In this document: in pieces, positions 647-46,447 of the stretch
How positions within the stretch are numbered: the first letter of the stretch is position 1
Layout of the letters: every line of letters starts with the position of its first letter
Assembly (NCBI RefSeq): GCF_044324785.1
Contig: NZ_CP172127.1
Source: Escherichia coli
Lineage (GTDB): Bacteria; Pseudomonadota; Gammaproteobacteria; Enterobacterales; Enterobacteriaceae
Reading direction: 5' to 3' (one strand)
Length of the DNA stretch: 64,000 nt
Program-made: the position numbers and the translations under genes
Notes under the pieces: generated by a model
What the model saw: the letters and a program-made list of their open reading frames with translations, nothing else
What the model was told of the DNA's origin: nothing
Database searches by the model: none

Positions 647-5453
<4,807 letters not shown>

Positions 5454-39897: not shown

Positions 39898-41373
<1,476 letters not shown>

Positions 41374-41376
41374 AGG

Positions 41377-41568
41377 CTACTTGGTCAACAGCAGCTTGCC
41401 AGCCTGAGTTTTACGAAGCAGATATTCTTGCCCGTCATGATCGATAATCAGTTTGCCATCCGGACCTAACAGTGTCTGGCTGGTAATTCGCCGAATGGGC
41501 TGCGGGGAAGCGGTCTTGTGATTGGCATCCGTTTCAGGCGTGAGTTTTCTGCTATCCGTATAACGCAT
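41377..41568 (-). CDS. ydiE: HemP-family small protein YdiE
   Basis: ORF 41377..41595; start set to ATG 41568 ([28 protein letters not shown]..., 63 aa); convergent with selO, stops 3 nt apart. Confidence 0.85.
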
Positions 41569-41582
41569 AAAAATTAATAATA

Positions 41583-41609
41583 ATTGATATAACAATAATT
41601 CTTATTATC
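41583..41609 (-). promoter_or_regulatory. Fur-box-like sequence upstream of ydiE
   Basis: Minus-strand GATAATAAGAATTATTGTTATATCAAT resembles the Fur consensus GATAATGATAATCATTATC; lies 15-40 nt upstream of the ydiE ATG. Confidence 0.5.
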
Positions 41610-41699
41610 AATATTCTGGCGGGCCAGAGCAAGCAGTAATTTGTTGAGAAGACAACAAGTTGCGCAGAAATGCCCATTCCGTCAGGAATGGGCACGCAT

Positions 41700-42746
41700 T
41701 CAGAAGCGGGTATCAACCGCAGAGGCGAGTTTTTCGACCAGGCGTTCGGTATCTTCCCAGCCCAGACACGGGTCGGTAATCGATTGACCGTAAGTGAGCG
41801 GCTGACCGCCGACGATTTTTTGCGTTCCTTCGCGCAGGAAACTTTCCGCCATAATTCCAGCAATCGCCGTAGAGCCATTGCGGATTTGCTGACAAATATC
41901 CTCACAAACTTCTAACTGGCGACGGTGCTGCTTCTGGCAGTTACCGTGGCTGAAATCCACCACCAGATGTTCAGGCAAATCAAATTCGTGCAGCGTATCG
42001 CAGGCTGCGGCGATATCATCGGCATGATAATTCGGTTTTTTGCCGCCACGCATAATAATGTGGCCATACGGGTTGCCGCTGGTCTGATAGATGGTCATCT
42101 GACCATTTTTGTCTGGCGAGAGGAACATATGGCTGGCGCGGGCTGCGCGGATAGCATCCACAGCAATCCGCGTGTTGCCATCGGTACCATTTTTAAAACC
42201 TACCGGACAGGAGAGTGCCGAAGCCATTTCACGGTGGATCTGACTTTCGGTAGTACGTGCGCCAATCGCGCCCCAACTGATTAAATCAGCAATAAACTGA
42301 CCGGTCACCATATCGAGGAACTCAGTCGCGGTGGGGACGCCCAGCTCATTTACCTGTAAAAGTAATTTGCGCGCCAGCTCCAGACCGTGATTTACCCGAT
42401 AGCTGCCGTTTAAATCCGGATCGGAGATTAGCCCTTTCCAGCCGACAACAGTTCGTGGTTTTTCAAAATAGGTGCGCATTACGATTTCCAGCCGTGACTG
42501 GTACTGGTTGCGCAGCGACTGCAGACGGGTGGCGTACTCCATTGCAGCGGTGAGATCGTGGATCGAGCAGGGGCCAATAATGACCAACAGTCGCTTATCT
42601 TCACCATTCAGTATTTTTTCAATTCTGCGGCGGGAGTCGGTGACATGGGTGGCGACGCCAGGCGTTACGGGATACCGTAGCGCGAGTTCGGCGGGCGTTA
42701 CCAGGCTCTCAATACGCGCAGTACGGAGTTCGTCAGTTCTGTTCAT
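41700..42746 (-). CDS. aroH: DAHP synthase, Trp-sensitive isozyme
   Basis: ORF 41700..42746, 348 aa, MNRTDELRTARIESLVTPAELALRYPVTP... Confidence 0.97.
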   Translation of the reverse strand: MNRTDELRTARIESLVTPAELALRYPVTPGVATHVTDSRRRIEKILNGEDKRLLVIIGPCSIHDLTAAMEYATRLQSLRNQYQSRLEIVMRTYFEKPRTVVGWKGLISDPDLNGSYRVNHGLELARKLLLQVNELGVPTATEFLDMVTGQFIADLISWGAIGARTTESQIHREMASALSCPVGFKNGTDGNTRIAVDAIRAARASHMFLSPDKNGQMTIYQTSGNPYGHIIMRGGKKPNYHADDIAAACDTLHEFDLPEHLVVDFSHGNCQKQHRRQLEVCEDICQQIRNGSTAIAGIMAESFLREGTQKIVGGQPLTYGQSITDPCLGWEDTERLVEKLASAVDTRF

Positions 42747-42891
42747 TACAAGTCTCAGAAATTTGTTGCTTCTACGGCAGGACTACCGGGAAGTGATGCG
42801 CATCACGATAAACCAATCGCAGCTGATTTCAAGTGCGAGGTGTGTCACACCTCGCCGGGTGGTTAGCATGATAACAAAAAAACAAGTTAAT

Positions 42892-42909
42892 GCACTAGTT
42901 CTCTAGTAC
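42892..42909 (-). promoter_or_regulatory. TrpR operator of the aroH promoter
   Basis: Minus-strand GTACTAGAGAACTAGTGC, matching the known aroH trp-repressor operator; overlaps the ppsR stop codon (42903..42905). Confidence 0.85.
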
Positions 42910-43736
42910 ATTCGGCGGCTAAGGCCCATGATATCGAGGATCTTGGTGGCAATCTCTTCTACCGAATAATTGGTACTGTTAATCCACGGGATCTGATTTT
43001 TACGGTACAACGCTTCCACTTCCGCGACTTCCATCCTGCACTGACGAAGCGAGGCATAGCGACTGTTCTCCCGACGTTCCTCGCGAATCGCCGCCAGACG
43101 TTCCGGGTCGATAGTCAGGCCGAACAATTTATGCTGAAGCGGTTTGAGCGACGCGGGTAGCACAAGATTATCCATATCGTCGGCAATAAAGGGGTAGTTT
43201 GCCGCGCGGATACCAAACTGCATTGCCAGATACAGACTGGTGGGGGTTTTACCACAGCGAGAAACACCGAGCAGGATCACCTGAGCCTGGTCCAGATTGC
43301 GCAACGAAATGCCGTCATCGTGGGCGAGGGTGTAATCAATCGCCGCAATGCGCGCATCATATTTATTGAGATTATTAGGGTTAAGGCCGTGGGTTCGGTG
43401 AGCAATCGGCGTTGGATCCAGTTTCATCTCTTGTTGTAGCGGGGCAACCAGCGCCTGAACGATATCCTGGCAAAACCCTTCACTTTGCAAGATGATGGCG
43501 CGAATCTCCGGCAATACGATGGAGTAGAAGACCAGCGGGCGCACACCTGTCTGGTGATAAATTGCGTCAATCTGATCCTTCACTGCCCGTGCACGGCTCT
43601 CATTTTCGACAAACGGCAGCGTAATGCTGCTGATAGTGACGGGAAATTGTGACATTACTGCGTGTCCTAATACCTCCGCAGTTATTGCCGTACCATCAGA
43701 AATATAAAAAACGTGGCGATCAACAGCATTATCCAT
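42903..43736 (-). CDS. ppsR: PEP synthase regulatory protein PpsR (bifunctional kinase/pyrophosphorylase, DUF299)
   Basis: ORF 42903..43736, 277 aa; P-loop GVSRCGKT. Confidence 0.95.
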
Positions 43737-43966
43737 TTTGTTCTTCCCGTGATGCAGACATAATTCTATGAAAGCATAAATTAAAAACGCACAGAAGCGT
43801 AGAATGTTATGTCTGGTTTATAAAATGAACCTTCAATTTTATTATTTATGAAAACAGCATTTCATTTTTATGGTTTCGTTTATACCGATGGTTTATGTGG
43901 AAATTGTCGAATAAAGCAGGTTTGCGCAACGCTGGGATCAGTCTTAAAAAGTAAAAAAATATATTT

Positions 43967-43982
43967 GCTTGAACGATTCACC
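43967..43982 (+). promoter_or_regulatory. Cra (FruR)-like site upstream of ppsA
   Basis: GCTTGAACGATTCACC: near-palindromic TGAAC-G-ATTCA resembling the Cra half-sites TGAAAC/GTTTCA; ppsA is a known Cra-activated gene; about 90 bp upstream of the ppsA ATG. Confidence 0.4.
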
Positions 43983-44068
43983 GTTTTTTTCATCCGGTTA
44001 AATATGCAAAGATAAATGCGCAGAAATGTGTTTCTCAAACCGTTCATTTATCACAAAAGGATTGTTCG

Positions 44069-46447
44069 ATGTCCAACAATGGCTCGTCACCGCTGGTGCT
44101 TTGGTATAACCAACTCGGCATGAATGATGTAGACAGGGTTGGGGGCAAAAATGCCTCCCTGGGTGAAATGATTACTAACCTTTCCGGAATGGGTGTTTCC
44201 GTTCCGAATGGTTTTGCCACAACCGCCGACGCGTTTAACCAGTTTCTGGACCAAAGCGGCGTAAACCAGCGCATTTATGAACTGCTGGATAAAACGGATA
44301 TTGACGATGTTACCCAGCTTGCGAAAGCGGGCGCGCAAATCCGCCAGTGGATTATCGACACTCCCTTCCAGCCTGAGCTGGAAAACGCCATCCGCGAAGC
44401 CTATGCACAGCTTTCCGCCGATGACGAAAACGCCTCGTTTGCGGTGCGTTCCTCCGCTACTGCAGAAGATATGCCGGACGCTTCTTTTGCCGGTCAGCAG
44501 GAAACTTTCCTCAACGTTCAGGGTTTTGACGCCGTTCTCGTGGCTGTGAAACATGTATTTGCTTCTCTGTTTAACGATCGCGCCATCTCTTATCGTGTGC
44601 ACCAGGGTTACGATCACCGTGGCGTGGCGCTCTCCGCCGGTGTTCAGCGGATGGTGCGCTCCGACCTCGCATCTTCTGGCGTGATGTTCTCCATTGATAC
44701 CGAATCCGGCTTTGACCAGGTGGTGTTTATCACTTCCGCATGGGGCCTTGGTGAAATGGTCGTGCAGGGTGCGGTTAACCCGGATGAGTTTTACGTGCAC
44801 AAACCGACACTGGCGGCGAATCGCCCGGCTATCGTGCGCCGCACCATGGGGTCGAAAAAAATCCGCATGGTCTACGCGCCGACCCAGGAGCACGGCAAGC
44901 AGGTTAAAATCGAAGACGTACCGCAGGAACAGCGTGACATCTTCTCGCTGACCAACGAAGAAGTGCAGGAACTGGCAAAACAGGCCGTACAAATTGAGAA
45001 ACACTACGGTCGCCCGATGGATATTGAGTGGGCGAAAGATGGCCACACCGGTAAACTGTTCATTGTGCAGGCGCGTCCGGAAACCGTGCGCTCACGCGGT
45101 CAGGTCATGGAGCGTTATACGCTGCATTCACAGGGTAAGATTATCGCCGAAGGCCGTGCTATCGGTCATCGCATCGGTGCGGGTCCGGTGAAAGTCATCC
45201 ATGACATCAGCGAAATGAACCGCATCGAACCTGGAGACGTGCTGGTCACTGACATGACCGACCCGGACTGGGAACCGATCATGAAGAAAGCATCTGCCAT
45301 CGTCACCAACCGTGGCGGTCGTACCTGTCACGCGGCGATCATCGCTCGTGAACTGGGTATTCCGGCGGTAGTGGGCTGTGGTGATGCAACAGAACGGATG
45401 AAAGACGGTGAGAACGTCACTGTTTCTTGTGCCGAAGGTGATACCGGTTACGTCTATGCGGAGTTGCTGGAATTTAGCGTGAAAAGCTCCAGCGTAGAAA
45501 CGATGCCGGATCTGCCGTTGAAGGTGATGATGAACGTCGGTAACCCGGACCGTGCTTTCGACTTCGCCTGCCTGCCGAACGAAGGCGTGGGCCTTGCACG
45601 TCTGGAATTTATCATCAACCGTATGATTGGCGTCCACCCACGCGCACTGCTTGAGTTTGACGATCAGGAACCGCAGTTGCAAAACGAAATCCGCGAGATG
45701 ATGAAAGGTTTTGATTCTCCGCGTGAATTTTACGTTGGGCGTTTGACTGAAGGGATCGCGACGCTGGGTGCCGCGTTTTATCCGAAGCGCGTCATTGTCC
45801 GTCTCTCTGATTTTAAATCGAACGAATATGCCAACCTGGTCGGTGGTGAGCGTTACGAGCCAGATGAAGAGAACCCGATGCTCGGCTTCCGTGGCGCGGG
45901 CCGCTATGTTTCCGACAGCTTCCGCGACTGCTTCGCGCTGGAGTGTGAAGCAGTGAAACGTGTGCGCAACGACATGGGGCTGACCAACGTTGAGATCATG
46001 ATCCCGTTCGTGCGTACCGTAGATCAGGCGAAAGCGGTGGTTGACGAACTGGCGCGTCAGGGGCTGAAACGTGGTGAGAACGGGCTGAAAATCATCATGA
46101 TGTGTGAAATTCCGTCCAACGCCTTGCTGGCAGAGCAGTTCCTCGAATATTTCGACGGCTTCTCAATTGGCTCAAACGACATGACACAGCTGGCGCTCGG
46201 TCTGGACCGTGACTCCGGCGTGGTGTCTGAACTGTTCGATGAGCGCAACGATGCGGTGAAAGCACTGCTGTCGATGGCGATTCGTGCCGCGAAGAAACAG
46301 GGCAAATATGTCGGGATTTGCGGTCAGGGTCCGTCCGACCACGAAGACTTTGCCGCATGGTTGATGGAAGAGGGGATCGATAGCCTGTCTCTGAACCCGG
46401 ATACTGTGGTGCAAACGTGGTTAAGCCTGGCTGAACTGAAGAAATAA
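44069..46447 (+). CDS. ppsA: phosphoenolpyruvate synthase
   Basis: ORF 44069..46447, 792 aa, [34 protein letters not shown]... Confidence 0.97.

Follow-up and report, generated by a model that had tools for sequence, protein, structure and literature searches.

The TrpR operator of the distal aroH promoter overlaps the stop codon of ppsR in Escherichia coli

The ppsR-aroH junction and its operator

The ppsR (ydiA) and aroH genes both lie on the minus strand of the window, by which we mean the whole 64-kb stretch of DNA that was analyzed. The product of ppsR is 100% identical to Escherichia PpsR, and the RefSeq labels of both MG1655 and Nissle give the gene order as ppsA, then the divergent ppsR, then aroH. 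A 501-bp stretch around the aroH operator had a match of at least 95% identity in 5,422 of 5,426 complete E. coli genomes, and the same stretch is 99.8% identical to that of Nissle 1917. Window positions are related to the MG1655 reference by subtraction (window coordinate = 1831181 minus NC_000913.3 coordinate), and the ppsR-aroH junction aligns with that of MG1655 without indels. The aligned junctions differ at five positions, comprising one synonymous change in ppsR, two in the spacer of the distal aroH promoter (P1) and two in the leader, and nothing essential is altered. The 18-bp aroH operator is identical to that of E. coli K-12 (MG1655) and occupies the same position relative to ppsR and aroH, and the two-promoter layout of the K-12 aroH locus is likewise identical to that of the window. 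The features of the junction are collected in Table 1.

Table 1. Positions of genes, promoters and regulator sites at the ppsR-aroH junction, in window coordinates.
Feature	Position	Strand	Basis
ppsR (ydiA) CDS, 277 codons + stop	42903..43736	-	ORF list, RefSeq annotation
ppsR TSS, origin of ppsR-aroH transcript	43766..43767	-	SMRT-Cappable-seq TSS 1787414, Kim 2012
ppsR stop TAG, within left operator arm	42903..42905	-	ORF list and RefSeq annotation
TrpR operator of aroH P1, GTACTAGAGAACTAGTGC	42892..42909	-	exact, unique in window
P1 extended -10, TGTTATCAT	42876..42868	-	read from sequence
P1 TSS	42861	-	SMRT-Cappable-seq TSS 1788320 (b1704), mapped via MG1655 alignment
Second CRP-type motif, TGCGAGGTGTGTCACA	42834..42849	.	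same ETEC CRP ChIP-seq peak as the site at the P2 TSS
P2: -35 TTGAAA (42832..42827), 16-nt spacer, -10 TATCGT (42810..42805)	42805..42832	-	
CRP-type site CGTGATGCGCATCACT, straddling P2 TSS	42792..42807	.	palindrome, conservation, ChIP-seq
P2 TSS, 5′ UTR 51-52 nt	42797..42798	-	Kim et al. 2012 and SMRT-Cappable-seq
aroH CDS, Trp-sensitive DAHP synthase	41700..42746	-	ORF list, RefSeq annotation

The operator sequence GTACTAGAGAACTAGTGC has no other match in the 64-kb window at up to three mismatches, where 0.02 would be expected by chance, and the operator site is also the sole match in the window to the looser pattern GNACT-N8-AGTNC. It agrees with the palindromic consensus GTACTAGTTAACTAGTAC at 15 of 18 positions and contains both CTAG cores, which by definition are 8 bp apart. 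Read along the minus strand, the operator is made up of the G of the final Met codon (ATG) of ppsR, the Tyr codon TAC, the stop codon TAG and 11 intergenic bases. Seven operator bases are thus shared with ppsR, and G-TAC-TAG doubles as the Met-Tyr-stop end of the reading frame and as the GTACTAG arm of the operator. The original prediction, that positions 42892-42909 are the aroH TrpR operator and span the TAG of ppsR, is therefore borne out by the unique match, the end of the open reading frame, the RefSeq annotation and conservation. These results identify 42892..42909 as the classical TrpR operator of P1, which is functional and conserved. Binding of TrpR to the aroH operator was reportedly described by Kumamoto, Miller and Gunsalus in 1987 and by Klig, Carey and Yanofsky in 1988. 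TrpR control of aroH is also given in a regulon review.

Two aroH promoters and the leader RNA

Two aroH promoters were reportedly described in 1991 by Hudson, Rellos and Davidson. Other authors call them aroHp1 and aroHp2, and SMRT-Cappable-seq (PMC6131387, Supplementary Data 2) lists two start sites for aroH, TSS 1788320 and TSS 1788383. The first of these defines P1 and gives a 5′ UTR of 115 nt (42861..42747); the P1 start rests on this one data set, and the Kim 2012 survey lists the proximal promoter (P2) alone. Relative to the P1 start, the operator lies at -48..-31, the ppsR stop codon at -44..-42 and an extended -10 element at -15..-7. The latter consists of a TATCAT hexamer (42873..42868) with TGT directly before it, and ends 7 nt upstream of the start; an equivalent TG-n-TAT... 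element is present in other genera. The P1 spacer (42877..42891) is T-rich, and in the -35 zone (42897..42892) the best candidate, TAGTGC, agrees with TTGACA at only two of six positions. A generic -35/-10 scan did not call P1.

When its coordinates are set against the published TSS 1788320, the operator overlaps core elements of P1. Taken together, the elements identify P1 as an extended -10 sigma-70 promoter with a poor -35. In the accepted picture in the TrpR literature the aroH operator overlaps the -35 region, and the geometry of P1 fits this picture. The operators of trpEDCBA (trpO) and trpR are bound by the same repressor and contain the same type of dyad with two CTAG cores, but they sit elsewhere in their promoters, over the -10 region (trpO) and over the start site (trpR operator), and in this the aroH operator at -48..-31 differs from both. 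To our knowledge, overlap with an upstream coding sequence occurs, among these three operators, only at aroH.

This geometry bears on two parts of the original prediction. The aroH promoter had been described as embedded in the 3′ end of ppsR, which is correct for the DNA upstream of -42, whereas the -35 zone, the spacer, the -10 element and the start site are all intergenic. The aroH leader had been put at about 145 nt, and this is contradicted by both mapped starts, which give leaders of 115 nt from P1 (42861) and 51-52 nt from P2 (42797/42798). A 145-nt leader would need a start at 42891, adjoining the operator, and we found no fitting -10/-35 pair there.

P2 was the sole sigma-70-like match in a scan of 42600..43100 and lies 94-112 bp downstream of the operator. 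The supplement of Kim et al. 2012 records a single aroH start, 1786408 in the old numbering (equal to 1788384), with 414 reads and a 51-nt UTR, and TSS 1788383 of the SMRT-Cappable-seq data (window 42798) lies one base from it and 7 nt past the P2 -10 element. P2 is kept in the Enterobacteriaceae and also in Erwinia, Pantoea, Serratia and Yersinia.

The P2 start is straddled by the CRP-type site CGTGATGCGCATCACT, whose palindrome GTGAT-N4-ATCAC is unique in the window. The form cGTGATGCGCATCACt agrees with the CRP core TGTGA-N6-TCACA at 8 of 10 core positions and is also unique in the window. The arms of CGTGATGCGCATCACT are nearly invariant across about 30 genera (each pair is kept in 27-28 of 28 sequences), the centre varies, and no compensatory changes were found in the arms across these genera. 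In CRP ChIP-seq of ETEC H10407, aroH is a high-confidence target, with exactly the motif at 42792..42807, and the same peak contains the second CRP-type motif, TGCGAGGTGTGTCACA, about 44 bp upstream of P2. The Shimada 2011 CRP SELEX paper makes no mention of aroH.

A near-perfect palindrome, GCGAGGTGT-GAC-ACACCTCGC (42835..42855, minus strand), would pair into a 9-bp hairpin in the P1 RNA, at +7..+27, and overlaps TGCGAGGTGTGTCACA. It is found in Escherichia, Salmonella and some Citrobacter, with unrelated sequence in other genera, and might act as a stabilizing stem at the 5′ end of the RNA or be no more than the DNA sequence of the second CRP motif. Just upstream of the aroH ribosome-binding region lies a further small hairpin of the leader, CCGG(Y)A...UGCCG (about 42770..42787, minus strand), with some compensatory changes between genera, two of three pairs being altered on both sides (CCAG/CUGG in Kluyvera, GGUAA/UUACC in Leclercia). 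The alignment fold of the leader gave weak covariation for one small hairpin alone. The fold of the 127 nt from the P1 start to 11 nt past the aroH ATG (42861..42735) showed nothing unusual (z = -0.55), a search of 42600..43100 against Rfam at E ≤ 1 returned no RNA family, and promoter and terminator scans of the flanks (41300..42600 and 43100..44100) found nothing relevant to the operator overlap.

At five loci from Lelliottia, Silvania and a relative (L046, L050, L052, L061 and L067), a 1-nt difference in the leader creates an upstream ATG in frame with aroH, so that the longest aroH open reading frames there start with MKQKILR..SMNK, 9 codons before the conserved start. This upstream start is probably an artefact of choosing the longest reading frame, but it could instead be a short N-terminal extension or an upstream open reading frame.

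Conservation of the operator and choice of codons at the end of ppsR

We compared the junction across species in a scan of one genome per species, which yielded 80 Enterobacteriaceae loci whose PpsR was at least 90% identical; protein look-ups contributed Klebsiella and Shimwellia, giving 82. GTACT beginning 4 nt before the ppsR stop codon, together with CTAG at +7, was present in 78 of the 82 species. At least 74 of 77 distinct sequences retain CTAGT, the right arm, which is non-coding, and the flanking intergenic positions vary. At the level of sequence comparison, conservation in 78 of 82 species excludes a chance juxtaposition of operator and stop codon.

The four exceptions take different forms. 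At locus L034 an insertion of about 205 nt parts the operator from ppsR, leaving a free-standing operator and a ppsR gene that ends in TAT TAG, and at L071 a new free-standing operator lies just beyond an insertion of 24 nt. Locus L037 encodes a PpsR with one extra residue and has a degraded left arm, and at L041 more than 1.4 kb has been inserted between ppsR and aroH.

The final Tyr codon of ppsR is TAC at 78 of 80 loci, compared with 409 TAC and 371 TAT (about 52% TAC) among the other Tyr codons of the same genes, and the third positions of the two preceding Arg codons vary freely. The stop codon is TAA at 65 of the 80 loci, TAG at 15 and TGA at none; these codon and stop counts are uncorrected for shared ancestry. 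As a counter-example, Shimwellia ends ppsR in TGA and has the rest of the operator intact, and the constraint on the stop codon is therefore not absolute. Within that limit, we infer that the last codon of ppsR and its stop codon are doubly constrained by the overlap.

Beyond the Enterobacteriaceae, the operator is absent in Erwinia, Pantoea, Dickeya, Serratia and Yersinia, where the ppsA/ppsR/aroH order is unchanged and ppsR ends in TAT TAA, TAC TGA, TAT TAA, TTC TGA and TTT TAA, respectively. This agrees with the RegPrecise survey, quoted in the regulon review, in which TrpR control of aroH is limited to close relatives of E. coli. In four of these five operator-lacking genera, P2 and the sequence just past it are conserved, and P2 is therefore probably the older promoter. 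P1 and its operator would then be an addition within the Enterobacteriaceae.

The stop codon and the right arm of the operator appear to vary together. Among loci with a TAG stop the right arm is imperfect in 14 of 14, whereas among those with a TAA stop it is a perfect CTAGTAC in 54 of 63, and both arms are perfect at none of 78 loci (Fisher p ~1e-9, uncorrected for shared ancestry). The TAG stop is confined to about three clades, namely Escherichia, the Citrobacter freundii group and Franconibacter. The pattern is suggestive of compensation between the two arms. We can only tentatively extend this into a history in which the left half-site was recruited from the Met-Tyr-stop end of ppsR (ATG TAY TAA) when an ancestor of the Enterobacteriaceae gained P1, upstream of the older P2, the covariation of stop codon and right arm would keep the operator below full strength, and the rare TAG of E. 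coli would be a regulatory rather than a translational adaptation.

Transcription across the operator and interpretation of the overlap

The ppsR start at 1787414 (window 43767), 31 nt before the ppsR ATG, is the origin of a "novel" operon, b1703|b1704, in the SMRT-Cappable-seq study (PMC6131387), and Kim 2012 independently records weak ppsR starts next to it, at 1785439 and 1785444 (old numbering), with 8 and 7 reads. In the former study both single-gene RegulonDB operons were extended to ppsR-aroH, among 883 RegulonDB operons extended by read-through, one read being enough for an operon to be called extended. The study lists one transcript context for ppsR in M9 and one in rich medium, ppsR-aroH, and two contexts for aroH; cDNAs shorter than 1 kb had been removed from the library, which could therefore miss a ppsR transcript without aroH, about 0.9 kb long, with its end close to the operator. 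The curated Term-seq tables of Adams et al. 2021, which cover three conditions, list no sense 3′ end or Rho termination region for ppsR or aroH, although low expression could hide a 3′ end in such data. Since ppsR-aroH reads occur in both media and no sense 3′ end is listed, transcription of ppsR reads through the operator, including in tryptophan-containing rich medium. It had been predicted that ppsR transcription must either read through the operator or stop there: the first course is documented by the ppsR-aroH reads, and for the second no 3′ end is listed. The ppsR-aroH transcript thus belongs to the set of read-through operon variants in the SMRT-Cappable-seq survey (PMC6131387). The junction resembles other promoters and regulator sites that lie in or across the 3′ end of a preceding gene, with the difference that the regulator site here is built from the final sense codon and the stop codon, and marks the choice of synonymous codon and of stop codon.

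Our favored reading, to which we assign a probability of roughly 85%, is that of a classical TrpR-controlled distal promoter, P1, whose operator contains the end of ppsR in its left half-site, accompanied by P2 and by read-through from ppsR. Tryptophan-bound TrpR on the 18-bp dyad would compete with RNA polymerase for the -35 zone of P1 and thereby reduce the number of P1 starts; binding of the dyad by holo-TrpR and the resulting block of polymerase at P1 are established in the literature. The aroH transcripts would then come from three sources: the TrpR-controlled P1, with its 115-nt leader; P2, with a 51-52 nt leader and an overlapping CRP site; and weak transcription that starts at the ppsR promoter and runs on over the operator. 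Transcripts from the latter two sources would escape TrpR and supply basal aroH expression. Repression of aroH by TrpR is modest, which would fit TrpR-independent expression from P2 and by read-through.

Whether the overlap has a value of its own is a separate matter, and on this the evidence is evenly balanced. The operator may simply have arisen where ppsR ended, in which case the TAC and TAR codons would reflect operator constraint and inheritance and not a coupling of ppsR to aroH. The weakness of the ppsR starts (7-8 reads against 414 at aroH P2) points this way, as do the free-standing operators at L034 and L071, where insertions part operator and stop codon and yet the operator and intact genes are kept, and the outgroups that already end ppsR in ATG TAY TAA or TGA. 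The persistence of the overlap in 78 of 82 species might be held against it, but compactness and inheritance explain that persistence equally well. This reading is compatible with TrpR control of P1 as set out above, and denies only an adaptive role for the overlap. Any regulatory role of the overlap itself would be hypothetical, and its visible consequence is the double constraint on sequence.

A coupling that acts on ppsR itself appears unlikely. Operator-bound TrpR could act as a roadblock to polymerases coming from ppsR, so that tryptophan would set the 3′ end of ppsR and stop read-through into aroH. The geometry permits this, the operator lying in the path of ppsR transcription, and this is its one direct support. 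The generally weak repression of aroH by TrpR speaks against a tight roadblock. Furthermore, ppsR is recorded solely as ppsR-aroH in both rich medium and M9, albeit in a library depleted of RNAs under 1 kb, and the Term-seq tables list no 3′ end just upstream of the operator.

It is distinctly unlikely that the operator dyad serves mainly at the RNA level as an intrinsic terminator of ppsR, with the T-run of the P1 spacer as its U-tract, even though a terminator scan flags AATGTACTAGAGAACTAGTGCATT followed by AACTTGTTTT and the isolated operator hairpin, with a 10-bp stem, folds at -11.4 kcal/mol (z = -3.9), because only 3 of the 10 stem pairs are G-C, AACUUG stands between the stem and the U7 run so that the uninterrupted U-run starts 6 nt past the stem, the fold is not unusual in its wider context (z = -1.5), no 3′ end appears there in the three Term-seq conditions, the ppsR-aroH transcript runs through the site, most other genera retain the operator but have lost the T-run, the hairpin is weaker (-7.5 kcal/mol) in species with a TAA stop, and in the operator-lacking Erwinia and Serratia ppsR is followed by a separate G+C-rich hairpin. 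A weak contribution to termination could nonetheless be made.

The reading of the site as the operator of P1, with the ppsR end in one half-site, has practical consequences. The original prediction held that the overlap matters to anyone engineering either gene, and in this it was right, since seven operator bases are the end of ppsR. For the same reason, a C-terminal tag on PpsR, a change of the stop codon or a deletion of the last codons would break a TrpR half-site and derepress aroH P1. Conversely, engineering of the operator is limited to changes that preserve Met-Tyr-stop. For the production of aromatic compounds, aroH expression has to be considered as the outcome of three inputs, namely the TrpR-controlled P1, P2 together with the CRP site, and transcripts that run in from ppsR. 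The literature or databases already cover the operator, both promoters, the ppsR-aroH transcript and the binding of CRP, and the understanding of the TrpR regulon is unchanged. The locus offers a small, clean example of a regulator site that constrains the choice of a synonymous codon and of a stop codon.

Two further observations concern the RNAs of ppsR. The Term-seq tables contain the 3′ end of an antisense RNA inside ppsR, at MG1655 1787648 on the minus strand, which corresponds to about 43533 on the plus strand of the window; no consensus promoter that would explain it was found on that strand in 42600..44100. The G+C-rich hairpins of the outgroups lie directly after ppsR, at 2835..2900 of the Erwinia locus (L084; -13.8 kcal/mol) and at 2823..2860 of the Serratia locus (L086; -17.7 kcal/mol), which suggests a dedicated ppsR terminator where P1 is absent.
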